A stretch of DNA of 64,000 nt from a virus (IMGVR_UViG_3300021387_000091:69979-133978), one strand, 5' to 3'; shown: positions 3,342-47,359, counted from the first letter of the stretch. Program-made: numbers and translations. Notes: generated by a model not told the origin, from the letters alone.

Positions 3342-3653
3342 CTAAAAATTAAAATCTTTTTTGTTTATTATTTGTTGTTGTTTTATAAAATTAATTAGGT
3401 AACATACAGTATAGTTATATATTTCCTTACTACCCGTAGACGGTTTATAATAACATTCGCCTGCATTTACATATTCACATTCAATATATCCAGTATCACC
3501 AATTTGTGGTTTATCGCAGTTTCAATTTGGAGCTAAGGTTGTGGTAATATATCTTAGCAGGCTATTATTTTGTTCATCTAAATTCTTAAATACATATATT
3601 GTATATTGACCTGGTTGTATGGCTACTACTTCTCCAAAGTATGTTGTTCGCAT
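3342..3653 (-). CDS. hypothetical small protein (1 in-frame TGA)
   Basis: Manual translation from ATG 3651-3653 to TAG 3342-3344; absent from track because of TGA. Confidence 0.3.
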
Positions 3654-6278: not shown

Positions 6279-6980
6279 CTATAAGTCTAAATATAAAACT
6301 GGATACTCAATTTTATAATCTTCATTTAAAACACTAACACAATAAACATCTGTTTTATCGAGAATTTCTTTATTATGATTAGATGAATGAAGATGGCCGT
6401 GAATATTTATTTTTGGAGATTTTTCTAAAATAGCATCTCTTAAAGCAACATTTCCAATATGTTCAGGATTTCTTCCCCATTTAGTCCAATCAAAACACAT
6501 ATCCGATGTACCATATGGCGCATCATGTGTTAATAATATGTCACAATCTTTAGGAATATAAGAATAAAGTTTATTTAAATTTTCTTGGTCTTTCATAAAA
6601 GCCCAATTTCCAAATATCTTACACCACGGTGTACCGTAAATAGTAATGCCGTTAAAATTATATAATGAATCCTCTAAATAAATAGTCCTATTATTTGTTT
6701 TATCTTGAATATATTTTGCTATTTCAAATCGTCCATCTTCAAGTTTTTGCCATCCAACTTCATGATTACCAGCTATCCATAAAACAACACTGTTTTCGTC
6801 TTTATATGGTAAAGAATTGACCCAATCAACAAAAGTTGTAATATACCATGACATTGTATCATGTTGATTCCGCTGATAATTTAAATCAACATTATCTCCA
6901 GCAACTAATAATAAATCAAAAGATTCCTTTATCTCTGGCAATAAACCGTGACTATCCGAAAATGCAGCCAATTTAATCAT
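6279..6980 (-). CDS. calcineurin-like metallophosphoesterase
   Basis: DSHG, GDNVD, GNHE motifs. Confidence 0.75.
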   Translation of the reverse strand: MIKLAAFSDSHGLLPEIKESFDLLLVAGDNVDLNYQRNQHDTMSWYITTFVDWVNSLPYKDENSVVLWIAGNHEVGWQKLEDGRFEIAKYIQDKTNNRTIYLEDSLYNFNGITIYGTPWCKIFGNWAFMKDQENLNKLYSYIPKDCDILLTHDAPYGTSDMCFDWTKWGRNPEHIGNVALRDAILEKSPKINIHGHLHSSNHNKEILDKTDVYCVSVLNEDYKIEYPVLYLDL

Positions 6981-13359: not shown

Positions 13360-13604
13360 AAAATCACCTTTTATACTAACCCCAGAGGTGTAACTGTGCC
13401 AACCTACGATTTGGAGGAATAGTATGCTTCTATGAGAGGCCTTTCCCATCTTCGTTCCCTGCGCGCTTAGGGCTCATTAAGTAGTTTGTTTGAAGATTTA
13501 TGGAAAAGCTACAATTACACGCTTGTAGCACACGTAGAGCTTACGTTCTCTCTATAACGATAGTAGTATATAGGATTACGATTCTTCCGTCGAAGACCAG
13601 TGAG

Positions 13605-13777
13605 TAGCGGGAGCAGGATTCGAACCTGCGACCTTCAGCTTAGACACTACGTTTGGACTCGAACCAAAATCCCGAGACTTAGGCTACGTGTACCTTACCA
13701 TTGGTCGACGTAGTGTGGTTCGTTTCAGTGAACCATGCTGTATTGAGGCTGACAAGCTACCACTGCTCTACCCCGCT
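13605..13777 (-). tRNA. class I tRNA (Arg UCU/CCU-like) split by ~100-nt intervening sequence in the anticodon loop
   Basis: 5' half AGCGGGG TA GAGC AGTGGTA GCTT G TCAGC (13777-13748) and 3' half GCTGA AGGTC GCAGG-TTCGAAT-CCTGC TCCCGCT A (13639-13605) pair as acceptor and anticodon stems; insert carries its own T-arm TTTGG-TTCGAGT-CCAAA inside an 8-bp helix. Confidence 0.5.
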
Positions 13778-19402: not shown

Positions 19403-19655
19403 AATTGTTATCCTATAGACTTTTTATTCTATAGTTCTTATACTTCTTTTTTGTATAAGTTCAGCATATATTTTCATCTACTTATTTTAGTTAAGATGGC
19501 GGATACTCGTGGAAGGATTATATTTATTCACCTTCTATGCGTTACAATGTCAAATAGCCTTTCGAAATCTATTTGCTTATCTCGGTATTAACATCACAGT
19601 CTTCACCGATTTTACCCGCTTCGATATATGATTTCTCATATAAAGGACGAAATTC

Positions 19656-20582
19656 TAAATAACGATTGAATTTTCTTTCAAGATATATATTAGAATCTTC
19701 ATAAAGATATTTTACACAATTTCAAGCTTTTCTATCTGTTGCAATTAATACATGTGTTACAGTATTTCCATTTTCTGGATGAAGTAAACGTATATGTTGA
19801 TATCCATTATTAAAATATTCAGCACATTTATTAAGAAAATCTTTTGTTCCAATAATACTCATTTCTATAGCAGAATGATCTGCGTTGGAATAAGTAATAC
19901 ATCCATCTCCATCAAAGTACCCTCTAATAAAATGTCTTATTAAAGCTGGATCTTTAAATATATTTTCATTTGGAAATTTAATAGTTAACGATTTTCTTGG
20001 AGTACAACCATAAGAATTTAATACTTCAACCATATGTTTATTATCAAAAGACATTCTGCAAAGATCTCCTGTTGGTAAACTCTGATACCTCATTTTGTAA
20101 GTATATCCAAGAAAATCCATAAATTTCTGCAAATGTGCTTTATCTTTAATACTAAGATTTACTGTAATTTTTGGTCTAGTAGAATCAATTCCTCCATCTG
20201 CATACAAAAATCCAAGTCAATAAGCTTTTTCTTCTGTATCAATAGAATCAAAAATATTATAATTTATATTGTTAATTCTATCTTTTCTAATTACTTGAAT
20301 GTTTGTTTGTTTTAATCATCTAGCAAGTGTTGCAACACCAACATTTAAAATAGATGATATTTCTTTAAGAGTTTTTCCCTGATTCTTATAAAGATCAATC
20401 ACTGTGTTTATATCTAAACTAATATTTCTTCTTTTTATTTCTACATTATTTAAACGTAAGTAATTCCCAATTGTTTGAGGACTTACTTTTAACTCTGTAG
20501 AAATATCTTTAATTGTTTTTCCAGACTTATAGATTTCTATAACGTTTGCTTTTTGTAAAAATTCAATCATTCGTTTTTGCAT
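19656..20582 (-). CDS. LAGLIDADG homing endonuclease with N-terminal HTH domains (3 in-frame TGA)
   Basis: ORFs 20316-20582 and 19722-20207 share a frame and join through TGA at 20316 and 20217; motifs Y(W)LGFLYADGG and FIRGYFDGDGC; TAG stop at 19656. Confidence 0.65.
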
Positions 20583-22078: not shown

Positions 22079-22239
22079 TTTGAGGCTCCTCCGGATCCCG
22101 AGACCGGTACTAGGGGTTACAAATCCCTTATTTTACCTGTTAAACTAAAGAGCCGTTAATGATACTTATTTAAACATATAAAGCCATTAATTTTTTTTGT
22201 TTTATAAAGTATTATAAGTATCATAAAATATTATAAAAG

Positions 22240-23406
22240 TTAAAAAATACACTCGTTAAAATAATTAAGCACTTCATTATTAACAGGTTCTTTAAAACAT
22301 TCTAATATGTCTTGTTCCCTATCTTTAATAAACTGCTGAGCTAACAAACGAGTATTTTCTTGTACTGGTCTATCGTGACTTAAATAAATTTGATCAAAAA
22401 TAACACCATCTCCTGCTTTATAAGCACTAAAAGTACAATCTTCTGGAGAACTCATATGAAATGCAATATAATTGTGACTTTGGATTCTATCAAAATAACA
22501 ATTATATAAACAATGATGCATTGTTTTAGCCTCAATAAAAACTTCTTTTTCTGAATTTAATAATTTTATATTATCTCCAGAAATTATATTTTTATATATT
22601 GGAACTTCATCTTTATCTTCAATTTCTTTCTCCAAAACAGTACGTATTTGTTTCTGATGTTCTAGATTAATTCTTTTAATAGACCATTTAAAATCTACAA
22701 TTTGATTTAATTTTACTGCATAAGTTAATAAATCATAATATAAATTAAGATTATCTGTATTTGTTAAAATATCAATACTGTCTTCTAAATTTCTAGTGAA
22801 ATCTCTCAGGTCAAAGATATTAAAGTAATAATGTCCATTAGTTAATAAACAATATTTCTTTACAAATCTCCAACCGATGTTTTTAATTCCAAAAACTCGT
22901 TTCTCAATAAATTTATAAAACGTCTCTTCGTTGTATATTTTATGAGTAATAATTGCACGAAATACAGAACTTTTTACAAAAAAGATTCGCATAAGATGTT
23001 GTGGAATATCTCTATACCAATCAATATTACACAAAGTAAAAAATGCGAGAATAAACTGTAAATCACATTTTAGATTTATCCTGTTTGATTCAATATAAAT
23101 ATATTGTGATAAAGGAGCTTTCCGTAAAAAGATTTTGTTTCCAATACGAGTAATTACAGTATTAGTTTGACATAAACAAATATGATTATCTTTAATTGTT
23201 AATATACAATTTGTATTATTAGCATGTTTTTCACAAAGCTTATTCTTTTCAAAATAATCTAAATCTTTAAAATTATCAGGAATTTGTTTTGATCCAATAT
23301 CATTAGTAACTTCTGTAACTAATGAATTGTCTACTTTAAAAGTCTCAATAAATTTCCTAAGACTAATCGATTGATCTTTCATGCTAACAGATTTTCTCTT
23401 AGACAT
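22240..23406 (-). CDS. PcfJ-like protein
   Basis: C-terminal AKTMHHCLYNCY resembles PcfJ-family HHC motif. Confidence 0.4.
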   Translation of the reverse strand: MSKRKSVSMKDQSISLRKFIETFKVDNSLVTEVTNDIGSKQIPDNFKDLDYFEKNKLCEKHANNTNCILTIKDNHICLCQTNTVITRIGNKIFLRKAPLSQYIYIESNRINLKCDLQFILAFFTLCNIDWYRDIPQHLMRIFFVKSSVFRAIITHKIYNEETFYKFIEKRVFGIKNIGWRFVKKYCLLTNGHYYFNIFDLRDFTRNLEDSIDILTNTDNLNLYYDLLTYAVKLNQIVDFKWSIKRINLEHQKQIRTVLEKEIEDKDEVPIYKNIISGDNIKLLNSEKEVFIEAKTMHHCLYNCYFDRIQSHNYIAFHMSSPEDCTFSAYKAGDGVIFDQIYLSHDRPVQENTRLLAQQFIKDREQDILECFKEPVNNEVLNYFNECIF

Positions 23407-23469
23407 AATATTATAAACTATGTTAACTTTATAAAAAATTATTTTATTTTATAAGTATCATAACTATTT

Positions 23470-24147
23470 TTATAGTCCAAATTTTTTTCTATATTTTCTT
23501 ATTGTTGCTTCAGAAACATTATATTTTTGTGCGATTCATAAATTGGATCTACCTTGCGCAATATATTGTTTTATATTTTCAACTTCACTATCTCAATCTA
23601 CAATTTTTCGATGTTTTGAAGCACAAGATAAACATAAACCAGAATTTGTTTTAGTTTCTCTTCCACACTCTGAACAATAATATTTTATCTTTTCCGTTTT
23701 ATTCGCATTACCGCAATAATTTTCTGTTTGCGAATGACAATTTGGACATAGCATTTGTAAATTACTTAATTCATTATTTGTTTCGTCTCCATCTATATGA
23801 TGTAGCTGACAAATAATAGGTTTATTTAATCATTCTGTTAATCCACAGCATTCACACTTATTTTGTTTTAATCCAGCATTGATTAATTTTTCTTTAAGTT
23901 TGGAAGATTTTATACAACTTCCATTAATAAGATATTCTTCAACTGATTTACATCTGCTTTTTCCTTTATCTTTAGACACAAATGTAAAATGAGATGTGTC
24001 TAGCCCATATTCTTTTATTTTATTTTTAAGGGTGTCTGAATTTCTACCTCTAACAGGAATTTCAAGTTCACGTAATGTATCTGCATAACAGAAATTATTT
24101 GCCACTGCTTTTTGTATGCGTTCTAAAGATCAATCATATTTTTTCAT
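23470..24147 (-). CDS. HNH homing endonuclease with C-terminal HTH (4 in-frame TGA)
   Basis: ORF 23830-24105 continues through TGA; CECCG...ICQLHHIDGDETNN...LCPNCHS HNH motif; ATG 24145-24147, TAA 23470-23472. Confidence 0.6.
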
Positions 24148-24226
24148 AATTAAAAATTTATTTGTTAAACATTTTATTTTGTAGTACAAAGATACAAAAT
24201 AATTTTGTGCTATCCAAATAAATTTG

Positions 24227-24522
24227 TTGAAATGCCGGGATTCGAACCCAGATTGCAAGAGCCACTTACTACTATAACTTTCGTTACCGTAAAATACGTT
24301 TGTAGTCTGGAGTTCCTCTTAACCATAACAAATCTTGTTTTAGGTTCGCTCTATAAACTCTCTACACACTGTCTTTAAACATTGGCTCGGGATTGCCATC
24401 ACCTTTACGTGTTAAGGGTTCCCCGAATTAGGAGCGTTCTACTTCTATTCTTTCAAATAGAGCATTCTGGTAACCAATAATGGTCTGGTAAATCTTGTGT
24501 CCTACCATTGGACGACATTTCA
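24227..24522 (-). tRNA. tRNA (most parsimoniously Gln UUG) interrupted by a group I intron in the anticodon loop
   Basis: 5' exon TGAAATG TC GTCC-AATGGTA-GGAC A CAAGA TTT (24522-24490); 3' exon TGGC TCTTG CAAT CTGGG-TTCGAAT-CCCGG CATTTCA A (24264-24227); U1:A72. Confidence 0.65.
24265..24489 (-). other. group I intron (~225 nt) within tRNA anticodon loop
   Basis: P-like AATTCGGGGAA, Q-like AATCCCGAGCC, R-like CCAGACTACA, S-like AAGTTATAGT elements in canonical order; 5' exon ends in U, intron ends in G. Confidence 0.6.
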
Positions 24523-24603
24523 ATTCAAAATGTAACTTAAAATAACATGTAATTCATTGATGACAGTATAAAATATTTAAGTTGTAAGTTACATTATTAA
24601 TAA

Positions 24604-25038
24604 TTAATTTATTGCAGGAACAAGTTTATACTTTTCTCCAACAATGTTTTTAATAATTTTATTTAAACGACTAATATAAACCCAATCGTTATCATAACCA
24701 ATTGTAACAAGAATAACAGAATTAATATCAGATTCATCAATCCACCCATTAACTGTTTCTTCAGAAGATCCAAATCCAATAGCAATTTGTTTGATATGAA
24801 GAATATCTTCCTTTGTTTTTGGAATAACAACAAACACTTCACTTTCACAACTACCGGTATAGAATAAATCCTCTTCGGTAGAAGATTCACGAATAGACAT
24901 ATCCTTTAAATAGGATTTCATTGCACAGGCAAATGTTTTTTCATAAGTCTTACAAGCACCTGAATCAGCAAATTCTTTACCGTCACATGCTACATAAACA
25001 TTAACATAACTTTTCTGTTCAACTTGTTTTGTAACCAT
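24604..25038 (-). CDS. hypothetical protein
   Basis: ORF track. Confidence 0.5.
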   Translation of the reverse strand: MVTKQVEQKSYVNVYVACDGKEFADSGACKTYEKTFACAMKSYLKDMSIRESSTEEDLFYTGSCESEVFVVIPKTKEDILHIKQIAIGFGSSEETVNGWIDESDINSVILVTIGYDNDWVYISRLNKIIKNIVGEKYKLVPAIN

Positions 25039-25207
25039 AATTAATTTTTATTACTCATTATTTTTATAATATTACTTATGTCCTTTCTAGAGTATTGCAA
25101 CTCTTTTAAAAATTTACAAAAACTAATTTTTAAATGTGTTTCTTGTCGATATTCTTTATATCGTTCCTTTAATGTAATACAGTTTCTTAACATATGTAAA
25201 AAATATG

Positions 25208-25288
25208 TGCGGAAGAAGGGACTCGAACCCTTACGCCTTGCGGCATCAGCTCCTAAGGCTGACGTGGCTGCCATTACACCACTTCCGC
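25208..25288 (-). tRNA. tRNA-Leu(TAG), class II
   Basis: 81 nt; anticodon arm TCAGC-CTTAGGA-GCTGA, variable arm GCCGCAAGGCG, A73. Confidence 0.85.
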
Positions 25289-25471
25289 AAATATACTTTA
25301 TTTCATCTACCGGAGGAAAAGTATTAAAACCCGGAAGTCCGTAAGCGTTGGATTAATTTGTTCGCCAGCTACCAACTATCCTACGTTTAGCATCTCACTT
25401 AATTTAATAAGGCTGATCTTTCACATGTTGATACGACGTAGATGGAATTTGCCACTCTCTTACCCTTCCTT

Positions 25472-25852
25472 TTATTTCTCTGGCTCTAATTCAATTAGAA
25501 GTCTAAATGGTCGTGGTTTGCCAGTTTTATTTACTTGCTCTTGTGCACAATTTCTACAAAGGGTTCTATACCAACCACCGCCAATAGTTCCAATATTCTC
25601 TGTTGAACCGCACTCTTCACACGTATAAAAAGATTTTGATTCAGCTTCATAAATCATTTGCTTTAATTCTTCTGTAGGATTATCTACATAAATTCTTAAT
25701 CCTGCAAATTTTTCTTTTATTTGAGTTATTTCTATTTTAGATTCATGGCTTTTATTCCATTCTTCTACATAATCAATAATAGGTTGATATAGAGATTTCC
25801 AACCATGACCACATTCTATACCAAATAATTCATAACATGTTTTTGATTCCAT
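25472..25852 (-). CDS. hypothetical Cys-rich (zinc-ribbon-like) protein
   Basis: ORF 25472-25897 trimmed to internal ATG to avoid tRNA-Arg; CxxC...CxxC. Confidence 0.45.
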   Translation of the reverse strand: MESKTCYELFGIECGHGWKSLYQPIIDYVEEWNKSHESKIEITQIKEKFAGLRIYVDNPTEELKQMIYEAESKSFYTCEECGSTENIGTIGGGWYRTLCRNCAQEQVNKTGKPRPFRLLIELEPEK

Positions 25853-25872
25853 AATATTAGATTTATTATTTG

Positions 25873-25946
25873 TGATTCCGATGCGGCTCGAACGCATGAC
25901 CTACAGCTTAGAAGGCTGTTGCTCTATCCAACTGAGCTACGAAACC
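25873..25946 (-). tRNA. tRNA-Arg(TCT)
   Basis: D-arm GCTC-AGTTGGATA-GAGC, anticodon arm ACAGC-CTTCTAA-GCTGT, T-arm ATGCG-TTCGAGC-CGCAT. Confidence 0.8.
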
Positions 25947-25961
25947 ATTTAAATGTCTCTT

Positions 25962-26040
25962 TTAATGCTTATTGGAATCGAACCAATTATTTTTGAACCC
26001 TATTCAAATGTTAAAACCATTTAACTAAAGCTAATAAATA
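25962..26040 (-). pseudogene. degenerate tRNA-like element (T-arm identical to tRNA-Pro copy 2; acceptor does not pair)
   Basis: ATTGG-TTCGATT-CCAAT T-arm and TTTGA-ATAGGGT-TCAAA hairpin but only 4 acceptor base pairs. Confidence 0.3.
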
Positions 26041-26179
26041 TTGTAAGAGACATATTATAACGAAACCTACTATTTTGAAAATTCTAAATTTCTGAGAAAT
26101 TCCGGAATGATACATCAGAAATGTATTTAAAAATAACAGGGAATAGTAGGAATAAATTGTTCAATAAAAGACACTTTAG

Positions 26180-26330
26180 TATTTTTGCTAAACCACTTAG
26201 CGACTTTTCCTAATATTGGCAGAAAAGACGAGATTCGAACTCGCGTAACAAAATATTTTATAATATTGTAAGTGTCTTATTAAAAGTCTATGATACTTAA
26301 TTACGTGCTCTATCCGCTGAGCTATTTGTA
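26180..26330 (-). ncRNA. tRNA-like module with intact D-arm and T-arm but no anticodon arm (Y-RNA/YrlA-like candidate)
   Basis: GCTC-AGCGGATA-GAGC D-arm at 26321-26306 and GCGAG-TTCGAAT-CTCGT...CTGCCA at 26245-26210; 5' and 3' acceptor strands do not pair; M1/M2 motifs in the spacer. Confidence 0.3.
26265..26305 (+). repeat. adjacent inverted motif copies ATTGTAAGTGTC ... GATACTTAA
   Basis: M1 and inverted M2/M3 copies 15 nt apart inside the tRNA-like module. Confidence 0.45.
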
Positions 26331-26339
26331 AACAATACA

Positions 26340-26400
26340 CAAAACAGGATTCGAACCTGTGACACCGGCATTAAAAGTGCTAAATTTGAGATTATAAGTA
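26340..26400 (-). ncRNA. second tRNA-like fragment (T-arm plus acceptor strand)
   Basis: ACAGG-TTCGAAT-CCTGT TTTGTGT with weak CTTTTAA hairpin; no pairing 5' acceptor. Confidence 0.25.
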
Positions 26401-26408
26401 TCATAAAT

Positions 26409-26446
26409 AGAACTTCTGGGACTATCCCTAATCCCAGAAGTTTTAA
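26409..26446. terminator. rho-independent terminator hairpin (bidirectional)
   Basis: CTTCTGGGA...TCCCAGAAG 9-bp stem flanked by T-runs on both strands. Confidence 0.55.
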
Positions 26447-26482
26447 TACACAAAGATACGAATTTAAACTTGAAAATCCAAA

Positions 26483-28309
26483 TTAAATTACATACTTTCT
26501 AACAAAATCATAACGATTACTTCTATAGATAGACATGAGTGGAGTATAGACATCAAAAATATCAATATCTTTAAAATTAACAAGCATTTGCTCAATTAAT
26601 TCAATTTTACCAGGAATATACATTACCTGATCAATATCTGCAAAATGGTTAATATTATAGTTATTGAAATTTCCAATTTCTATAATTACAATATATGGAA
26701 TAAATCCAAGATACTGTTCACACTTATGTTGAAGCTCGAGAATAGATGATTTAGCATCATAGCTATTATTCAAATCGCCATCAGAGCAGCAAATCCATAC
26801 AGGATATTCTCGTAAAGCATCTAATGTGTCTGGTTCTGATTTTGCAATTTCTTTTAGTCTTTCAGCAATAGAAGAAATATAAGTTCCACCACCTTTAAAT
26901 GTTGCATTTAAGAATTCAGAAATTCGTTTATAATTTTCATAAAAACTCTTTTCTGGAATAATAAATGGCTCTGGAACAATACTAACAACATTCTGTCTAT
27001 GCCAAAAACTATTTACCACTTTTGAACCTTTACAATCAATTGCAGACAAAAATCTTGCCTGATTTGCAAACATTCCAATAAGATTTCTTCCAGTATCATC
27101 AGGATTCTTATAGAGAAGAACAGATGCAAGAAATGCTGCAAAATTATATGGTGCACCCTGCATTGATCCAGATTCATCTATGATGGTTAAGAAATTAAAT
27201 GGAAGATTTACTTTGTTTTCTACAAAAGATTCTAACTTTAATTTATCCGGATTTCCAGAAAGAATCTCTTTATATAAATCTTCAAAAGTTGATGCACCAG
27301 TTGTAACTTTAGCTTCTTTCTTTACTTTTTCAAGACGAATCCTATCCTCTATAGAAGCAGTTCCTTGACGAACTTTTTCCTGAAGAACACGTTGTTCCTG
27401 CTGAGCATTTTCCTTAAACTTTTCCCAATCAAGATACCACTGTTTTAAATTTGGCCATTTAAGAATGGTTTTTGCATCATCCTTATATGAATAGAAAATC
27501 CTATTTTTAACACGATATCTTGCTTGCGCTGGAAGTTTGTTTATCCAATTGGTAAACTGCAATTTATCAAATTCTGATATTTTTCCAGTTGAAAATAGAA
27601 CAGACTCAAGATTGGAATTATACTGTCTTCTCCAAGAACGATATCCTTTAAAATTAGCAAATTTACCATTAAAAACATAAGTCCAACCCATCTTAACAGA
27701 AATATCTTTCAAGAACTGAGCTTTTTCAAGCATTACTCGATAGGTGTCTGGCAACATTTGCTTATGTCCACTTCTTTTTCCAAGTCTAGGTAAAGTTAAG
27801 AATTTAGCAACAAGCATCTTCTTAAATGGATTGTTTCCATTAATAATAGACACTACGTAATCCTCTAAATCCTCTCTATACTTAGGAATAGAAAGCATAT
27901 TATAAACATTTATTACATCTCGAGTTTTAGCTCTTGTTTGAACCCTACTTCTAAAAAGGTTATCGAAACAAGTATATTCATCAAACAAACCTGCCCACAA
28001 GAACTTTTTAAATTGCTCATAATCATTAGCAATTATCCAGTTCATTATAATGAAAAACTCATTTCTTTTAGCTTGTCCTCCAGAATCCACCTTATTTCCT
28101 TTAAAGATATTATGTTCACGATTTGTAATATCTCCAATAGAAAATAAAAGAGAGTAAAACATCTCTCTTTTTACTTTATCATCTTTTACCTCATTATAAG
28201 CAGAAGTTAAAAGACTATTTGTAATAGACTGACCCTGAAAAATAGAAAGACAATTTTTTAATCCATAAAAAGGATTTTCATTCGTTTTATTAAATTCTAC
28301 CTTTACCAT
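26483..28309 (-). CDS. large protein with C-terminal vWA domain (possible TROVE/Ro60-like architecture)
   Basis: 608 aa; MIDAS LTIIDESGSM at ~aa 378, then GGGT and CSDGD motifs; ~375-aa N-terminal domain of unknown fold. Confidence 0.55.
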   Translation of the reverse strand: MVKVEFNKTNENPFYGLKNCLSIFQGQSITNSLLTSAYNEVKDDKVKREMFYSLLFSIGDITNREHNIFKGNKVDSGGQAKRNEFFIIMNWIIANDYEQFKKFLWAGLFDEYTCFDNLFRSRVQTRAKTRDVINVYNMLSIPKYREDLEDYVVSIINGNNPFKKMLVAKFLTLPRLGKRSGHKQMLPDTYRVMLEKAQFLKDISVKMGWTYVFNGKFANFKGYRSWRRQYNSNLESVLFSTGKISEFDKLQFTNWINKLPAQARYRVKNRIFYSYKDDAKTILKWPNLKQWYLDWEKFKENAQQEQRVLQEKVRQGTASIEDRIRLEKVKKEAKVTTGASTFEDLYKEILSGNPDKLKLESFVENKVNLPFNFLTIIDESGSMQGAPYNFAAFLASVLLYKNPDDTGRNLIGMFANQARFLSAIDCKGSKVVNSFWHRQNVVSIVPEPFIIPEKSFYENYKRISEFLNATFKGGGTYISSIAERLKEIAKSEPDTLDALREYPVWICCSDGDLNNSYDAKSSILELQHKCEQYLGFIPYIVIIEIGNFNNYNINHFADIDQVMYIPGKIELIEQMLVNFKDIDIFDVYTPLMSIYRSNRYDFVRKYVI

Positions 28310-34983: not shown

Positions 34984-35607
34984 TTATTCCTCCTTTCTTG
35001 CGTTAAGACCGAGTTCGTAGAAGTAGCGGGCAAACCGAGCAATTCTTGGAGCCCAATCTTTATAGTTTCTAAGTTCTCCAATAAAGCCGATTGTGTATTG
35101 TTCAATTTCTTTCTCCAAATCCACCTCCGACTGCTCCTGCTGGAGAATCTCATTTACTTCATCCTGCGTGAACATAAAATCCATGCAGTATTGTTGTAAG
35201 CAACAAAGGACTATTTCCGCCCCTACACTTTCCATATATTCGCTAAGTATAGCAAGGTCATGTGGAGCAATATTCCTCTTAATTTCGGTGGCTCGTTCTT
35301 TTGTTTCTTTTATGCGGTCAATAGCGTTAGAACGATGCAAGCCAATCTCGCTTATCAGCAGGCCATAATTCATCCAGCCCTTCTTTTGTGTCTCCTGTTC
35401 GATGCGCGGTACCTGTGTAAGTTTCGGCTGCTCCTGCTGGAGAGATGAGATAGTGCGTAAGACATTTTCGTATTGTAAAACTACAGCGTCCCATTTCGTG
35501 CAATCAGATGATGTTCCGGTTTCTCCCGCAAAACGGGCTTTTTCCTTTGCATCAAGATATTTTTTTTCTATCTTCTCTTTTAGTTTGTCCGCGTCAATGT
35601 ATTTCAT
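34984..35607 (-). CDS. hypothetical protein
   Basis: ORF track. Confidence 0.5.
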   Translation of the reverse strand: MKYIDADKLKEKIEKKYLDAKEKARFAGETGTSSDCTKWDAVVLQYENVLRTISSLQQEQPKLTQVPRIEQETQKKGWMNYGLLISEIGLHRSNAIDRIKETKERATEIKRNIAPHDLAILSEYMESVGAEIVLCCLQQYCMDFMFTQDEVNEILQQEQSEVDLEKEIEQYTIGFIGELRNYKDWAPRIARFARYFYELGLNARKEE

Positions 35608-35609
35608 GG

Positions 35610-36383
35610 CTAAAGTAGTTTTTGAAGGTCGTTATAAAGTGACACAAGAATACGATAGGCATCATATCCACCCACAGACGCATTATGAATTTCTTTTGCT
35701 TTGGAAACACAATCCAAAAGGCAACGCATCTGTTCCTCGCTCGGCTTCCAGCGCCTGTAATACATACTTTTTAAAGCGTCGGGATTGCTGTTCTTTTCAA
35801 TAGATAGACATACCCCATTGAATCGCAGAATAAGACATTCACCGATTTTTCTCGCTTCTTCGATGGTATCACTAATCGCCTTGTCGATAATAGTACCAGG
35901 GCGGGGTTCATATACCCTCACATAGCCTTCCTTGCTCCACTCTGCGGGCTGCTGGTCTTGTGTTAAAGTGTCCTTGTCTGCTGGCCAATTTCGTGCAACA
36001 TAGTCTCTGCGCTCCTTGATTATCTCATCGTCTTCTCCGATATGACAGACATACCAACCATGTCTTTTCAGGGCGTGGTGCAATGCTGCTGGAATATAAC
36101 TATCGCAAATACCATAATCAGGTTCAGCTGTACCAGATTCATCTCTGGGCTTCTGCTCTTTCTGCCTTTCGAGGTAGGCAATAGCTTCGTCTTTTGTAAC
36201 ATCATTAATAAGTGTCCCATCCTGGTGGGCTGCTGCACAGATAGCATAACTTATTGCTTTCCTTATTCTCTCGTCCTTGCTCTCCTTGAGCTCAATGATA
36301 ACCTTGTTACCTTCAATTCTAGCTTCATAGCCTTCAGGTATCTCACGCTCATAACGAATCGCCATATTTGCTTGTTCATTCAT
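35610..36383 (-). CDS. hypothetical protein (cassette A; paralog of 44607-45293)
   Basis: Shared IPEGYEARIE...NDLQKLL ends. Confidence 0.5.
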   Translation of the reverse strand: MNEQANMAIRYEREIPEGYEARIEGNKVIIELKESKDERIRKAISYAICAAAHQDGTLINDVTKDEAIAYLERQKEQKPRDESGTAEPDYGICDSYIPAALHHALKRHGWYVCHIGEDDEIIKERRDYVARNWPADKDTLTQDQQPAEWSKEGYVRVYEPRPGTIIDKAISDTIEEARKIGECLILRFNGVCLSIEKNSNPDALKSMYYRRWKPSEEQMRCLLDCVSKAKEIHNASVGGYDAYRILVSLYNDLQKLL

Positions 36384-36386
36384 ATT

Positions 36387-36767
36387 CTAAATCAAATTTT
36401 CGAGACAATACTTGATAGCCGCTTCACAAGCACTCTCATAATGCTCATATATCCATCCTTGATGATACGATTCATTGGTTTTAGCAACAGTTATCTCAAT
36501 ATCCCAAAGAAATTTTTCATTATCGAGTACACTACTTAAAATTGGCACAACAGCCACACCTTTATCTTCTCTCAGCCATTTCATTACCATTTGAATGGTT
36601 GGACAACAAATAAAACAAAAATCAGGTTGAATTATTTGAGAGTTAGTTCTATTACTTGTTGGAATATATTCTCCATTTTTATTATATCCTAAATAACATA
36701 TTTCATCAAACTCTTTCTCTTTTAAGAGTTTCGCTACCTCAAAGCTAACGTAATCTTCAGTTATCAT
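36387..36767 (-). CDS. hypothetical protein (paralog of 46190-46588)
   Basis: Shared MITEDYVSFE...AIKYCLENLI. Confidence 0.5.
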   Translation of the reverse strand: MITEDYVSFEVAKLLKEKEFDEICYLGYNKNGEYIPTSNRTNSQIIQPDFCFICCPTIQMVMKWLREDKGVAVVPILSSVLDNEKFLWDIEITVAKTNESYHQGWIYEHYESACEAAIKYCLENLI

Positions 36768-37015
36768 ATAAGTTTAAATAAAATGTCGGTGTAGAAACAA
36801 AATTCATTAGGCCAGTCTTCAAGATTTCCATTCTTATCAATCCTAATGTATTTATTTTTGAAAAGAATCTTGTATCCAGTAGCCTGTTCTGCTTTTATTT
36901 GTGCCCTAACATTGTCGAGACTTATTATATTTGTTATAAGTCCGAGATTTTTTCTTTCTGGGGAAATCAAAAATGCTTCAAAATTTCCGATGTTGTTGTT
37001 AATTACAATTGCCAT
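36764..37015 (-). CDS. hypothetical protein (paralog of 47371-47652)
   Basis: Shared FEAFL.SP motif. Confidence 0.45.
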   Translation of the reverse strand: MAIVINNNIGNFEAFLISPERKNLGLITNIISLDNVRAQIKAEQATGYKILFKNKYIRIDKNGNLEDWPNEFCFYTDILFKLI

Positions 37016-37017
37016 AT

Positions 37018-37449
37018 CTATTCAGTTTTATACATCCCTTCTGGCGCTTCTAATGCTAGTCCCATAGGAATTAAACCACGATAATCGAAATGATGGGCAT
37101 TGAGCCAGTCCTGTTTATTTGTTGTAAGAAAATATTCTTTGCATTCTCCACTTTCGATAGAAAGAAATTCCCGTGTTTCATCAAATGTCATACTTGACAT
37201 GGGACGGAGATAGGGCTTGATTTCATCCGGATAAAAATACTCAGAAGCTTCATACAAACCAATTTCCTCCGTTTCAACGCAAACGCTCACTATCCTATCG
37301 TCACAATATCTCTCTATGCCTAAATCCGCGTCTTCTTCGTTATCATAATCGATTTGGCACTTGATACCATAAGGCAACCTTGCACATATATCTTTCAGTA
37401 GTAGTCGTTTTTCTTCTTGTGTCATATTACATTGAGTTGAGCTTGTCAA
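37018..37449 (-). CDS. hypothetical protein (paralog of 46928-47359)
   Basis: Shared LLLKD.CARLPYG...GLIPMGLALEA. Confidence 0.5.
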   Translation of the reverse strand: MTSSTQCNMTQEEKRLLLKDICARLPYGIKCQIDYDNEEDADLGIERYCDDRIVSVCVETEEIGLYEASEYFYPDEIKPYLRPMSSMTFDETREFLSIESGECKEYFLTTNKQDWLNAHHFDYRGLIPMGLALEAPEGMYKTE

Positions 37450-44074: not shown

Positions 44075-44570
44075 GCACTATTTTACCACTATAGCTTTCG
44101 CTACCAGAATAAAACTCTGTTCAATCATTGACATTATCTCTGATGTGTCACAGTTAATTCTGTTTAATTCTGTTTGTGGTCTGGACTGTATCTTAACCAT
44201 ATTGAAATCTCGCGAGTTAGGTTTTAGTTTTCTAAGATTCCTCCAACGCTAACTTTTCGAAGATTCGGAATCTCTCAGTTGTCTTTTCCTATTTCAACTT
44301 AGGTTCCTCCTGTATCTAGTCTCTACACACTGTCTATTCGCTTATTGCAACTGTATACTAATTTAATAGTCAAGTTTTCAAACACTCAAAGATGTTATTG
44401 GGTTGCACGAAATAACATTGGCTCGGTATTGGCATACTCAAGGTTAGTTTCAAACCCATTCTATCATTCAGATAGTATAATTTAGAACTATAGCCTTCAC
44501 CGAATTAGGGAGGTTCTACATCCAAGGTTTTCCTTGGTGCACTCAAATTTTTAAACTTAAGATATGATTT
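44075..44570 (-). other. group I intron-like element homologous to the intron at 24265-24489, not within a recognisable tRNA
   Basis: Shared blocks with 24265-24489 (plus-strand): ctacacactgtct, acattggctcgg.attg.cat, ccgaattagg.g, gttctac, tgt.gtctgga, cttaaccata, actata.ctttcg.tacc; two extra insertions. Confidence 0.45.
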
Positions 44571-44606: not shown

Positions 44607-45293
44607 CTAAAGTAATTTTTGAAGATCATTAATAAGCAACATTAGTATTGGGAGATGTTCATCTTCACCCCATGTATCATGTGTTTTCAGAACAGAATAA
44701 GATGCTTCTAATGCGTCCATTTGTTCCTTGCTCGGCTTCCAGTGAGGCTGTTTACGGAAGGATTTGAGGAAATCTATCTTAATCTCAATAATTGCGGCGT
44801 GGTCTTTATCTTTGACAAGACTATCCTCATAATCTTTAATGATTGATTCCAACCATTGTTCATCTTCCTCGCTCCACTCTACTGACTGCTCTTTCTGTTT
44901 TCCTGCTAAAAATCCCTCACGAAAACCCTTTGCAAAGGCAAGTTCTATACGATTATCTTCATATCCATCTACTGCGGATGCCCCACTATCATTATAGAAT
45001 TTCCAAGCCTTGTCAAGTGCTTCCTCAAAAGATTCTTGGTCATTATAGATAGGAGTCATCCGATTATACTTTTCTTTGGTTTTCTGCCTTTCTATATAAG
45101 CAAGAGCCTCTTCTTTTGTTGTATGTGAACCTGGAGAAATCACACTTCCATCCTCAAGTGCAAATTTTATGAAGGTTACAATATCATTCCTTATCCTTTC
45201 GTCTTCGCTCTGTTTAGGTTGAATAATAACATTATTTTCTTCAATCCGAGCTTCATATCCTTCTGGAATTTCATATTTGTAGTAAGGTTTCAT
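44607..45293 (-). CDS. hypothetical protein (cassette B; paralog of 35610-36383)
   Basis: ORF track; shared motifs. Confidence 0.5.
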   Translation of the reverse strand: MKPYYKYEIPEGYEARIEENNVIIQPKQSEDERIRNDIVTFIKFALEDGSVISPGSHTTKEEALAYIERQKTKEKYNRMTPIYNDQESFEEALDKAWKFYNDSGASAVDGYEDNRIELAFAKGFREGFLAGKQKEQSVEWSEEDEQWLESIIKDYEDSLVKDKDHAAIIEIKIDFLKSFRKQPHWKPSKEQMDALEASYSVLKTHDTWGEDEHLPILMLLINDLQKLL

Positions 45294-45295
45294 GC

Positions 45296-46069
45296 TTACA
45301 AATTTAAAAATGGAAGTTCTTTTTTAAAATTTAAGATTTCTATAAATTCTTTGTTATCAACGAACTCTTTCCAATTCTTATTTAACCAATCAAAATCATA
45401 GTTGAAATTTGGTTTGAATTTGGAATCAATTTTGTTCATTATTTGTAAACACATATCGTCGAACAGTTGTTTACCATACTCAGTATCTATACGTTTACAA
45501 AGAATATGACCCCACCAGTGAACAATATCTTCAAGTTCATAGCATTGATCTGCAATTATTTGCTCACAAGATCCAGAATCAAAATCATCTCTATGTCTTA
45601 CAACACTACAACGAACATTCCAAAGATCAATTACCCTATTTATTTTAATAACCTTTAAAATATTAAGATTTTCTGAAAGACACACATAATAAAGATGCTT
45701 TTGCATTATTAAATTATTAAATTCATCCTCAGAAATAGGTGATATTGGTTCATCAATAATACAATCTTGTAAACTTATAAAGGCCCATCCATTCATTCTG
45801 AATATAGTATAACGGGGATTTATAGATGATTGAAAAACAATATTTACATCTTTAAGTTTCTTAAGATCATTATCTGAAGCCTTACTAATAACAATGTAAT
45901 GTAATGCCCCTTCATGAAGACAATGCCCTATGCTATTACTTCCTGCTGTATAAAATAGACTGTCATCTGGAAGTTCAATTACATGTCTTTGTGCGTCTTT
46001 AGGATGTATACTATAACATCCAAATCTTACAGTAATTTTCATATTATTTACTATTTTTTGCGAGTTCAA
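45296..46069 (-). CDS. hypothetical protein
   Basis: ORF track. Confidence 0.5.
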   Translation of the reverse strand: MNSQKIVNNMKITVRFGCYSIHPKDAQRHVIELPDDSLFYTAGSNSIGHCLHEGALHYIVISKASDNDLKKLKDVNIVFQSSINPRYTIFRMNGWAFISLQDCIIDEPISPISEDEFNNLIMQKHLYYVCLSENLNILKVIKINRVIDLWNVRCSVVRHRDDFDSGSCEQIIADQCYELEDIVHWWGHILCKRIDTEYGKQLFDDMCLQIMNKIDSKFKPNFNYDFDWLNKNWKEFVDNKEFIEILNFKKELPFLNL

Positions 46070-46189
46070 TCAAAGTCTGCATTGCTTCAATATCCTCTTC
46101 AGATACACAATAAGAGGCTTCGTACCAAAACTCATACCATCCATCTATGGATTGCTCGAGTCGCTTTATTGCTTGTTCTTTAGTCATAA

Positions 46190-46588
46190 CTAAATCAGAT
46201 TTTCAAGACAATATTTAATAGCAGATTCACAGACTTCCTCATAGGAATCTTTATACAAACAAACGTTCGGCACATCCACATCATCTATTTCGCCGTTATT
46301 TTTTATCTTAATGACAGATGCTACATATGTGAATCCAAGTCCGCAAATATTTGCATAATCTGTCGTAATGACAATACGATGAACTTCCCTCAACCACTTC
46401 ATTGCCATTTGGAGGGTTGGCGCTAGGATAGCATTATGCATTTCACATCCAGATGCTTCAACCTCATATTTTTCATAACTAAAAGAACCAGCATTCCCAT
46501 AATGAGCTCTGCATCCTTCATCAAACCCCTTTTCCTTCAGGAGTTTTGCTGTTTCAAAAGAAACGTAATCTTCTGTTATCATAATCAT
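46190..46588 (-). CDS. hypothetical protein (paralog of 36387-36767)
   Basis: ORF track. Confidence 0.5.
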   Translation of the reverse strand: MIMITEDYVSFETAKLLKEKGFDEGCRAHYGNAGSFSYEKYEVEASGCEMHNAILAPTLQMAMKWLREVHRIVITTDYANICGLGFTYVASVIKIKNNGEIDDVDVPNVCLYKDSYEEVCESAIKYCLENLI

Positions 46589-46739
46589 ACAATATTATAA
46601 AGTATAGACGTGCTGTTTCAAATTCTATACACCAAACTGTCAAACCATGATGTGTAGGCAGTTTCCAAACAAGGTTCTAACTTGGACTCCTTCCATACTT
46701 AGTTTATTGATACATAATGCAATTATAATAATCATACCT

Positions 46740-46925
46740 TCATTTCTTTAGGCTCTTTCCGTAAAAATCAACATATCGTTTTACTGTATCATCTATACAG
46801 TCTTTTAGAGATTCATATCCGAAGTAAGTATTTTCAGGATAGCCCTTAAGTTTTGAGTATTCCCAGTTTTTAGGATTGTTATATGCCCGAACTATCTTTT
46901 TCTTTAAGATTGATAGCTTTGTCAT
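46740..46925 (-). CDS. hypothetical small protein
   Basis: ORF track. Confidence 0.35.
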   Translation of the reverse strand: MTKLSILKKKIVRAYNNPKNWEYSKLKGYPENTYFGYESLKDCIDDTVKRYVDFYGKSLKK

Positions 46926-46927
46926 GC

Positions 46928-47359
46928 TTATTCGGTTTTATACATATCTTCTTTAGCTTCAAGGGCCAGTCCCATAGGGATTAAGCCACGAAAATCGAAC
47001 ATCTTTTTGTTAAGCCAATCGATTTCATTAAACAATACTCTATCACTAACAATCATTCCATCAGAGTATTTGTATGCTATTGGAGCATCTATACTATCTT
47101 CAAGAATGGCAAAATCTTTCTCAAATGCTTTTCTATATTCATTTCTTTCCTCCTTAGTCATACTTGACATTGGACGGAAATATGGCTTAATAGTATCTAT
47201 CCAATAAGGAAGATTCGAATATTCTCTTATATAAACATCTTCATCCCTTATGTAATGAATTTCTCTTATGCATTCTTCATTATCGGCCTTAAATTTTACT
47301 CCATAAGGCAATCTTGCACAAAGGTCTTTAAGTAGTAGCTGTCTATCTTCTTGTGTCAT
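46928..47359 (-). CDS. hypothetical protein (paralog of 37018-37449)
   Basis: ORF track. Confidence 0.5.
   Translation of the reverse strand: MTQEDRQLLLKDLCARLPYGVKFKADNEECIREIHYIRDEDVYIREYSNLPYWIDTIKPYFRPMSSMTKEERNEYRKAFEKDFAILEDSIDAPIAYKYSDGMIVSDRVLFNEIDWLNKKMFDFRGLIPMGLALEAKEDMYKTE

Follow-up and report, generated by a model that had tools for sequence, protein, structure and literature searches.

[quoted passage not shown]

Positions 24227-24522 of a viral DNA stretch of 64,000 nt, here called the window, carry on the minus strand two halves of a tRNA gene that lie 225 nt apart. This raises the question whether the two halves form a single gene interrupted by an intron and, if so, to which class the intron belongs, which tRNA its removal would yield and how it may have reached this place. 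[quoted passage not shown]

The window is part of a ~177-kb TGA-recoded gut crAss-like phage, and the DNA polymerase it encodes shares 49% identity with that of the uncultured crAss-like phage cr4_1. Some of its genes use TGA as a sense codon (eight in-frame TGA codons in the DNA polymerase, many in the plus-strand late block), and a tRNA(UCA) is located at 10302-10209. About 21 tRNA genes were found in the window; a tRNA-Leu(UAA) gene at 43990-43904 has no intron. A tRNA-Arg gene carries an insert of 101 nt, for which scans of IMG/VR and blastn against phages detected no relatives; a search with Rfam in E-value mode was also empty. The 8.4 kb around the tRNA-Gln locus are 100% identical in two independent metagenome assemblies (a JGI contig and a 176,743-bp ENA contig), so that an assembly artefact can be dismissed. 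The phage is present in the samples JGI 3300002641 and ENA ERZ12302816.

ARAGORN in intron mode delimited a 296-nt pre-tRNA-Gln(UUG) without encoded CCA (24227-24522, minus strand), reporting a tRNA-Gln(ttg) with a 225-nt intron and exactly the borders given here. The 5' exon (33 nt; 24490-24522, minus strand; tRNA positions 1-34) reads UGAAAUG-UC-GUCC-AAUGGUA-GGAC-A-CAAGA-UUU and comprises the acceptor strand, the D arm GUCC-AAUGGUA-GGAC and the anticodon stem strand CAAGA, followed by U32, U33 and U34. The 3' exon (38 nt; 24227-24264, minus strand; tRNA positions 35-73) reads UGGC-UCUUG-CAAU-CUGGG-UUCGAAU-CCCGG-CAUUUCA-A; it starts with U35, G36, G37 and C38 and continues with the stem strand UCUUG, a variable loop of 4 nt, the T arm, the acceptor strand and A73. 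The ORF-less insert between them (225 nt; 24265-24489, minus strand) starts with ACCAGACC, ends with GUAGUAAG and interrupts the anticodon loop between U34 and U35; it was delimited by nhmmer, Rfam alignment and covariation. Across the insert, pairing is perfect in all 7 bp of the acceptor stem, which includes U1-A72, and in all 5 bp of the anticodon stem (CAAGA/UCUUG). A first-pass annotation of this DNA had already claimed such pairing across 225 nt, and the strings it quoted are all present on the minus strand, in agreement with the ARAGORN call in intron mode.

The joined exons gave a 71-nt tRNA-Gln with the anticodon UUG and a canonical cloverleaf in ARAGORN. The identity set for an E. 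coli-type GlnRS consists of U1-A72, G2-C71, G10, U35, G36, G73, A37 and U38. U1-A72, G2-C71, G10, U35 and G36 are present in the spliced tRNA, which has A73, G37 and C38 in place of the remaining three. Since an intronless tRNA-Gln on a 170-kb viral contig (locus L043) shares A73 and G37, these two deviations seem to be typical of the lineage. On the whole window, neither ARAGORN with default settings nor Rfam at the gathering score called the split locus. A second tRNA-Gln was not found in the 64-kb window by ARAGORN (default and intron mode) or Rfam; a tRNA at 22083-22154 that was detected by Rfam only and considered as another tRNA-Gln is tRNA-Thr(UGU).

The Rfam model Intron_gpI (RF00028) aligned with the insert from end to end (24486-24272) at a score of 17.1 bits, with a gathering score of 50 and E=0.062 in a 551-nt search. 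By itself this score is inconclusive, and relatives were therefore sought. An nhmmer profile built from 26 related tRNA introns, with the window left out, matched 24468-24265 with E=1.4e-35, which rules out a chance match. Two relatives exceed the Intron_gpI gathering score, namely L038, which also resides in a tRNA-Gln gene (82.2 bits), and L004 (53.8 bits). The introns closest to the window intron are those of tRNA-Leu(UAA) genes, with ~70% identity over match columns. The first-pass annotation had proposed an Rfam Intron_gpI match as a check and had counted its absence, together with the absence of a spliced product, against an intron; the Rfam half came out on the negative side and is overridden by the evidence from the family. 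By this homology, we assign the insert to the group I introns of the bacterial tRNA-anticodon-loop family, tRNA-Leu(UAA) type. The presence of P2, a short P5, GAAA loops and the lack of P2.1 and P5abc make it look like a member of subgroup IC3.

Introns of this family were found in genes for tRNA-Leu(UAA), -Gln(UUG), -Ser(UGA), -Lys(UUU), -Met/Ile(CAU) and -Tyr(GUA) and for opal-suppressor tRNA(UCA). A megablast search of GenBank phages with 23000-26500 revealed no close relative and matched tRNA-Arg only. Sensitive blastn against the same phages aligned the P3-P6 core with annotated Intron_gpI features of Staphylococcus phages, and nucleotides 81-258 with the 735-kb uncultured huge phage LR756501, where the match is a 205-nt intron at position 34/35 of a tRNA-Leu(UAA) gene. 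An exact search with the shared 3' block CCAGACUACAAAC...GGUAACGAAAGUUAUAGUAGUAAG identified 30 IMG/VR viral contigs, 23 of them with tRNA-Leu(UAA) genes split by introns of 196-301 nt and one with a split tRNA-Met/Ile(CAU) gene; the viral contigs carrying family introns reach 230 kb. The same pattern was found in 8 metagenome contigs, whose family introns reside in hosts other than Leu at 34/35, and in 16 MAG contigs, mostly tRNA-Tyr(GUA) genes of gut Clostridia and tRNA-Leu(UAA) genes of Bacilli. As the relatives were drawn with one exact 3' pattern, the diversity of the family is under-represented and P9 looks invariant. An exact-pattern scan of IMG/VR with the Gln 5' exon revealed one unrelated intronless tRNA-Gln (L032) only. 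Family members were also detected in a tRNA gene of the cultured Agrobacterium jumbo phage Atu_ph07, in which a CDS annotated as 'hypothetical protein' overlaps the intron, and in the capsid gene of Pelagibacter phage HTVC120P, which is split by the intron. That two unrelated tRNA fragments flank an unrelated sequence by chance is a reading with nothing in its favour beyond the miss by default tRNA finders, and it is already refuted by the perfect 7-bp and 5-bp stems, the family profile match and more than 50 homologous split tRNA genes elsewhere.

To define the core, a helix model was derived on the window sequence and projected onto a MAFFT alignment (A1) of 27 distinct family members; an intron position n corresponds to window coordinate 24490 minus n, and all elements lie on the minus strand. 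P2 is a hairpin, UCUAUUU-GAAA-GAAUAGA, with a GAAA tetraloop (24444-24461; intron 29-35/40-46), which was recovered by covariation and by the MFE fold. In P3, CGCUC at 24432-24436 pairs with GAGCG at 24347-24351 (intron 54-58/139-143; covariation). P4, UUCGGGG/UCCCGAG, encloses P5 (intron 72-73/93-94) and L5 (24386-24427; intron 63-69/98-104); it is indicated by covariation and the Rfam alignment, with 95% of cells paired in the 27 sequences and a high posterior probability of the block in Rfam. P6 is a short hairpin of the MFE fold, CAAUGU-UUAAAG-ACAGUG (24367-24384; intron 106-111/118-123). P5 and P6 are poorly aligned and weakly supported in A1, and P6 is the least certain helix of the model. 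P7 is formed by GAGUU (24356-24360) and AACUC (24310-24314; intron 130-134/176-180), and makes a pseudoknot with P3; its 5' strand lies inside the true R element GUGUAGAGAGUUUAUAGAGCG (about 24347-24367) and its 3' strand within the true S element AAGAGGAACUCC (about 24309-24320). In P8 (24321-24346; intron 144-147/166-169 and an inner stem), an 11-nt motif, CCUAAA...UAUGG, resembles a GAAA tetraloop receptor. The P9 domain is a three-way junction (24268-24306) of P9 (ACUAC/GUAGU; intron 184-188/218-222), a variable P9a and P9b (UAAC-GAAA-GUUA), which is capped by a GAAA loop, and omega-G is intron nucleotide 225. The P8 motif presumably represents an Azoarcus-type tetraloop receptor, and by analogy the GAAA loops L2 and L9 may contact receptors in P8 and P5.

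Standard pairs fill 85.1% of the cells in A1; sliding the 3' partners by 1-3 columns lowers this share to 26-40%. Changes on both sides were observed for 31 pairs, versus at most 22 in the slid versions, and none of 500 shuffles reached any of five measures. By helix, both sides changed in 7/7 pairs of P2, 5/5 of P3, 3/7 of P4 (two being invariant), 2/5 of P7 and 2/4 of P8. All 27 sequences keep the P7 pairs G-C (G24360-C24310) and A-U unchanged. When L038 is aligned to Rfam, the consensus R and S elements fall on the window columns GUGUAGAGAGUUUAUAGAGCG and AAGAGGAACUC; by this homology G24360-C24310 is the predicted guanosine-binding G-C pair. J8/7 and P7 (GAGUU/AACUC) of the window intron deviate from the family consensus. 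P9 and P9b are invariant in A1 because the search pattern had selected these strings, and compensatory variants of P9 (ACCAC/GUGGU) and of P9b (UAGC/GCUA) occur in a second element in the window and in the Atu_ph07 intron. A shorter register of P9, ACUA/UAGU, was discarded, as the ACCAC/GUGGU variants fit the 5-bp register only. When the 296-nt precursor was folded without constraints, the MFE structure contained the acceptor stem, P2, P3, P4, P5, P6, P8 and the P9 domain (z=-2.43). Rfam's own alignment of P3, P7 and P8 was not adopted, given its non-canonical pairs and low posterior probability. The first-pass annotation had described P, Q, R and S-like elements in canonical order. Its P (24419-24429) and Q (24384-24394) are indeed the strands of P4, whereas its R (CCAGACTACA, 24301-24310) and S (AAGTTATAGT, 24271-24280) are both strands of the P9 domain. 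As P7, this R and S would pair GACUA with UAGU+A, which cannot give the G-C pair, and homology and covariation place P7 at GAGUU/AACUC.

The splice sites can be deduced from the tRNA loop and from the intron itself. A 7-nt loop together with a 5' exon that ends in U and an intron whose last base is G results only if the sequence is broken after UUU and again after a G that precedes UGGC. Direct reading revealed a candidate internal guide, CCA-GAAU (24464-24470, minus strand; the hyphen separates the parts facing the two exons), in a layout repeated in the relatives. Its GAAU (24464-24467) pairs with the exon sequence AUUU in P1 (4/4 pairs, with U34 opposite G) and its CCA with the 3' exon UGG in P10 (3/3 pairs); this pairing with both exons supports the junction of UUU with UGGC. 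Across the relatives, whose guide registers were corrected by eye, the guide varies in step with the exons of the host tRNA. In tRNA-Leu(UAA) genes the 5' exon ends in ACUU, the 3' exon starts with AAA and the guide is UUU-GAGU; the corresponding sequences are GACU, CAU and AUG-GGUC for a Met(CAU) relative with site 33/34, CUUU, UA and UG-GAAG for a Lys(UUU) relative with site 35/36, CUU, GA and UC-GAG for a Ser(UGA) relative, CUU, CA and UG-GAG for the tRNA(UCA) suppressor relatives, and ACUU, UGG and CUG-GAGU for the second Gln(UUG) case, L038.

A natural counterpart of the predicted spliced product is found in L043, a contig of a related phage. Its intronless tRNA-Gln(UUG) at 3357-3430, with U1-A72 and A73, has the anticodon arm UCAGA-UUUUGGU-UCUGA and lies upstream, in the same orientation, of a homologue (43% identity) of the window ORF 23406-22240. 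The unusual loop UUUUGG(U/C) is thus exactly the predicted ligation product. Junctions after U32 or U33 were rejected in view of the guide pairing, the position of omega-G and this intronless tRNA-Gln. Other splice sites could in principle produce a different tRNA, since a G before GC at 24261-24263 would permit the 7-nt loop UUUACGC (UUUAC+GC) of a tRNA-Val(UAC). We regard this as highly improbable: the 5' exon would end in C instead of U, the guide does not pair with such a junction, the loop of L043 is that of tRNA-Gln, and the intron ends in GUAGUAAG in all 27 relatives, in line with omega-G at 24265. The first-pass proposals that the 5' exon ends in U and the intron in G, and that splicing after U34 yields the loop UUUUGGC of a tRNA-Gln(UUG) with U1:A72, agree with U34 and omega-G as placed here, with ARAGORN on the joined exons, with the guide and with the L043 loop. 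Its main proposal of a group I intron in a phage tRNA-Gln(UUG) gene is likewise borne out by homology to introns that pass the Rfam cutoff, by covariation, by guide pairing and by the intronless counterpart.

Following standard group I chemistry, the predicted reaction would start with folding of the precursor and pairing of the exon sequence AUUU with the guide GAAU in P1, U34 being opposite G. The attack after U34 would then come from a free guanosine docked at the G-C pair of P7. In the next step, the 3' exon UGG would pair with the guide CCA in P10 and omega-G (24265) would enter the G site. Ligation of the exons would give the loop UUUUGGC and a 71-nt tRNA-Gln(UUG), to be followed by CCA-tailing. 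The predicted junction joins ...CAAGAUUU to UGGCUCUUG..., i.e. AAGAUUU to UGGCUCUU, and the junction 20-mer ACAAGATTTTGGCTCTTGCA does not occur in the DNA. Predictions from the sequence likewise include catalysis itself, how efficient it is and a regulatory role, if any.

Splicing might be real and yet depend on a phage or host protein, or serve as a control on when, or how much, tRNA-Gln is supplied. The short and weak P6 and the AT-rich core (39% GC) are in accordance with this, and many group I introns in nature depend on chaperones in vivo. Timing would moreover matter in recoded phages, and relatives split opal-suppressor tRNA(UCA) genes in three viral contigs (L007, L011 and L035). However, the intron contains no maturase-like ORF, and it has both GAAA tetraloops and the receptor-like motif, elements by which small self-sufficient IC3 ribozymes are stabilised; we consider such dependence or timing unlikely. 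We also judge it rather improbable that catalysis has been lost, with the intron persisting as a relic and the split tRNA-Gln as a pseudogene. The low Rfam score, the divergent P7 and J8/7 and the minimal P6 would fit a relic, as would an apparent decayed copy of the family at 44082-44553 in the window, which lacks omega-G and tRNA exons and implies that decay happens in this phage genome. Several features speak against it: no core helix is broken, omega-G and the G-C pair predicted to bind G are both retained, pairing of the guide with each exon is perfect, the joined exons fold into a cloverleaf free of defects, and no other tRNA-Gln was found in the window. An intron able to splice and to restore tRNA-Gln(UUG) is the reading we retain.

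A free-standing gene for a putative HNH homing endonuclease of 225 aa (23470-24147, minus strand; PHROG 10822, E=1.9e-42) starts 80 nt downstream of the tRNA-Gln 3' end, on the same strand and outside the intron. Its ORF is open only with TGA as sense and contains four TGA and no TGG codons. The Pfam search of the protein gave sub-threshold matches only (HNH_3, 17.8 bits versus a cutoff of 24.8). The protein is 38% identical (E=4e-36) to an ORF inside the tRNA-Leu intron of L022, and one in-frame TGA is found at the same aligned tryptophan in both. A tblastn search of all family loci revealed homologues inside or beside the intron family at nine other distinct loci: 49-250 nt past the 3' splice site in L017, L023 (Met), L031, L038/L040 (Gln), L041/L042 and L054/L055, upstream of the tRNA in L034 (Ser), and within the intron in L022 and L035. 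The same search detected no homologue away from introns in the family loci, and about 45 of the 56 family loci have no HNH gene nearby.

Because this linkage recurs across different host tRNAs, we propose homing in trans: the HNH gene probably moves the intron by what has been termed collaborative homing. In a co-infecting phage, a tRNA allele without the intron would be cleaved by the enzyme, and its repair would introduce copies of both the intron and the endonuclease gene. A wider scheme, which we put forward tentatively and hold to be possible rather than probable, is that intron and HNH gene form a mobile cassette circulating among phage and gut-bacterial tRNA genes with loops that break after ..CUU or ..UUU. 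Such a cassette would hide tRNAs, since split genes escape tRNAscan, ARAGORN and Rfam at default settings, and part of the tRNAs and suppressor tRNAs reported as 'missing' from recoded crAss-like phages would be explained in this way. As every tryptophan of the HNH protein is encoded by TGA, homing of the cassette would also be coupled to the expression of a suppressor tRNA from the phage itself.

This kind of element is already known, and its place in a phage tRNA gene is unreported in the literature that we found. According to the relevant passages of a 2014 review, the phage introns known at the time all resided in protein genes, although phages have many tRNA genes, and a full-text literature search found no later report of an intron in a phage-encoded tRNA. 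Judged by the sequences collected here, introns of the self-splicing type are common but unannotated in phage tRNA genes (27 IMG/VR viral contigs, LR756501 and Atu_ph07). Phage tRNA inventories and analyses of codon usage and recoding are biased in consequence, because the split genes are invisible to default tRNA finders and the window copy also to the Rfam cutoff. Recoded crAss-phage genomes without a detectable suppressor tRNA have been noted (PMC7886860, PMC12386605). In viral contigs, family introns split tRNA(UCA) genes.

Among known phage introns, those of Twort-like and 812-like Staphylococcus phages (annotated as Intron_gpI in GenBank) have a P3-P4-P5-P4'-P6 block that is 81% identical to the window intron over 57 nt; they split protein-coding genes, unlike the window intron, and the similarity is limited to the conserved core. 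Group I introns in the anticodon loops of bacterial and plastid tRNAs have been known since 1990 (Kuhsel et al. 1990, as cited in passages of PMC3984707 and PMC11878797). The window intron resembles the tRNA-Leu(UAA) introns in its site 34/35, a 5' exon ending in U34, a contiguous guide for P1 and P10, its small size and the lack of an ORF; the P4/P6 and R/S blocks are also similar (AAUUCGG..GAA / AAUxCCGAGCCAA; GUGUAGAGAC; AAGxxxAGUCC). It differs from them in its host tRNA-Gln(UUG), its phage genome, the guide CCA-GAAU instead of UUU-GAGU, the P7 GAGUU/AACUC, the conserved three-way P9 and an Rfam score below the cutoff. The GAAA-capped P2 and P9, the P8 motif CCUAA../UAUGG, which is receptor-like, and the R element GUGUAGAGA match features that we take to be those of the Azoarcus tRNA-Ile(CAU) intron. 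This small IC3 ribozyme (PMC13168695) is also similar in size (~200 nt), whereas the window intron has its site at 34/35, another host tRNA, an AT-rich sequence and tertiary contacts that are suggested by motifs.

A survey of 4,934 complete bacterial genomes (Nakagawa et al. 2026, PMC13011429) reports, in its main text, 333 tRNA group I introns at nearly all loop positions, 81% of them of subgroup IC, and points out that annotation tools overlook tRNA genes with such introns. Among the intron hosts named in this main text, tRNA-Gln does not occur. The survey describes an HNH endonuclease gene within a tRNA-Leu(UAA) intron of Bacteroidota, and concludes that the mobility of tRNA introns is limited as few of them encode endonucleases, counting those encoded within introns only. 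It covers bacterial genomes and no phages, whereas the endonuclease gene in the window lies beside the tRNA gene; the repeated combination of an ORF-less intron with an adjacent HNH gene suggests mobility in trans, which such a count, as described in the main text, would miss. The closest parallel for this arrangement is the psbA intron of cyanophage S-PM2, which together with the free-standing F-CphI exemplifies collaborative homing (Zeng, Bonocora and Shub 2009, as cited in a passage of PMC3984707). As far as that passage describes it, both cases have an ORF-less phage intron adjoining a free-standing homing-endonuclease gene; they differ in that the host gene in the window encodes a tRNA, the enzyme is of the HNH type and homing is proposed from the genes. 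The occurrence of the same endonuclease family inside the introns of L022 and L035 points to a possible route from such neighbouring genes to a composite mobile intron.

Introns of the family that interrupts tRNA anticodon loops are present, unannotated, in two named phages. The cultured jumbo phage Atu_ph07 of Agrobacterium (490 kb) carries a tRNA-Leu(UAA) gene with a 278-nt family intron (MF403008, about 112890-113250; locus L062, 1457-1818), and the 3' part of this intron and the 3' exon are overlapped by the CDS AUZ94936.1, annotated as 'hypothetical protein'. In Pelagibacter phage HTVC120P (MH598807, about 19615-19801; locus L063, 1463-1649; nhmmer E=2.7e-29) the intron lies in a protein-coding gene and is flanked by the ORFs gp29 and gp30, each annotated as 'capsid protein'. 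The family thus crosses between tRNA and protein hosts.

The window itself contains a second element of the family on the minus strand (44082-44553, about 470 nt), which the family profile detected as three pieces (E=5e-11, 2e-11 and 0.012). Its guide sequence is of the Leu type, with UUU as the P10-pairing and GAGU as the P1-pairing part, and compensatory changes are found in both P9 (ACCAC/GUGGU) and P9b (UAGC/GCUA). P5, P6, P8 and P9a all have large insertions, tRNA exons are absent at the element, and the Rfam Intron_gpI model scores only 14.3 bits. The terminal guanosine position of the family is lost, the element reading GUGGUA--AAAAUAGUG, whereas the Atu_ph07 intron reads GUGGUAUG followed by AAAAUCCG. 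An intact, intronless tRNA-Leu(UAA) with the loop UUUAAGC is located about 90 nt downstream (43990-43904). The element is probably a decayed copy of an intron-containing tRNA-Leu. Two paralogous runs of three to four small genes with similar N-termini (for example ..EIPEGYEARIE.., MITEDYVSFE.AKLLKEK.FDE and MTQE..LLLKD.CARLPYG) are also encoded on the minus strand, at 34984-37425 and 44607-47359; the end of one run directly abuts the intron-like element.

Family introns also split tRNA(UCA) genes of the opal-suppressor type at position 34/35 in four viral or metagenome contigs (L007, L011, L035 and L051). The intron of L007 is 620 nt long and contains an ORF that, judged by eye, may encode a PD-(D/E)XK endonuclease, and that of L035 is 637 nt long with an HNH ORF inside. 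The split L035 tRNA is similar to the long-arm tRNA(UCA) of the window (10302-10209). The L035 contig (JAEIGA010021616) also shows an Rfam match to OLE RNA at 6530-6741 (98.3 bits, covering model positions 285-595 only), with a tmRNA and tRNA genes around it. Split tRNA(UCA) genes of this kind would escape default tRNA finders, which may bear on the remarks about a 'missing suppressor tRNA' in PMC7886860 and PMC12386605.

For the tRNA-Leu(UAA) of L041/L042, with the exon sequences ..CAGACUU and UAAAAUCUG.., two splice registers can be considered. Like the Met intron, this one may be inserted at 33/34 with GGUC of the guide pairing to GACU; alternatively, splicing may occur at 34/35, giving an 8-nt anticodon loop. 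The ARAGORN call there is inconsistent.

A further split gene of the window is an otherwise flawless tRNA-Arg(UCU) (13604-13777, minus strand), interrupted between U33 and U34 by 101 nt (13645-13745). The preceding exon ends in U and the insert in G. An intact tRNA-Arg(UCU) at 25946-25872 has an identical anticodon arm. A group I core would need far more sequence than the insert offers. One part of the insert is a hairpin, GGUUC-ACUGAAAC-GAACC, and the other a tRNA-like piece with an 8-bp 'acceptor' (CACUACGU/ACGUAGUG), a D-like arm and a T arm (UUUGG-UUCGAGU-CCAAA), lacking an anticodon arm. Searches revealed no relatives in IMG/VR or GenBank phages and no Rfam match. Introns in tRNA-Arg(UCU) occur in Bacteroidota (PMC13011429); the insert could be a deletion remnant of such an intron, or something new. 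Default ARAGORN misses the tRNA-Thr(UGU) at 22083-22154 (minus strand; Rfam, 38.5 bits), whose anticodon stem has an A-C mismatch.

The two free-standing homing-endonuclease genes of the window, both on the minus strand, encode all their tryptophans by TGA: a LAGLIDADG gene at 19569-20582 with the motifs LYADGG and FDGDGC (TGA/TGG, 3/0) and the HNH gene at 23470-24147 (4/0). Most early-block genes neighbouring them use TGG only. This pattern is similar to the recoding of endonucleases that has been noted in 'Agate' phages (bioRxiv 10.1101/2021.08.26.457843).
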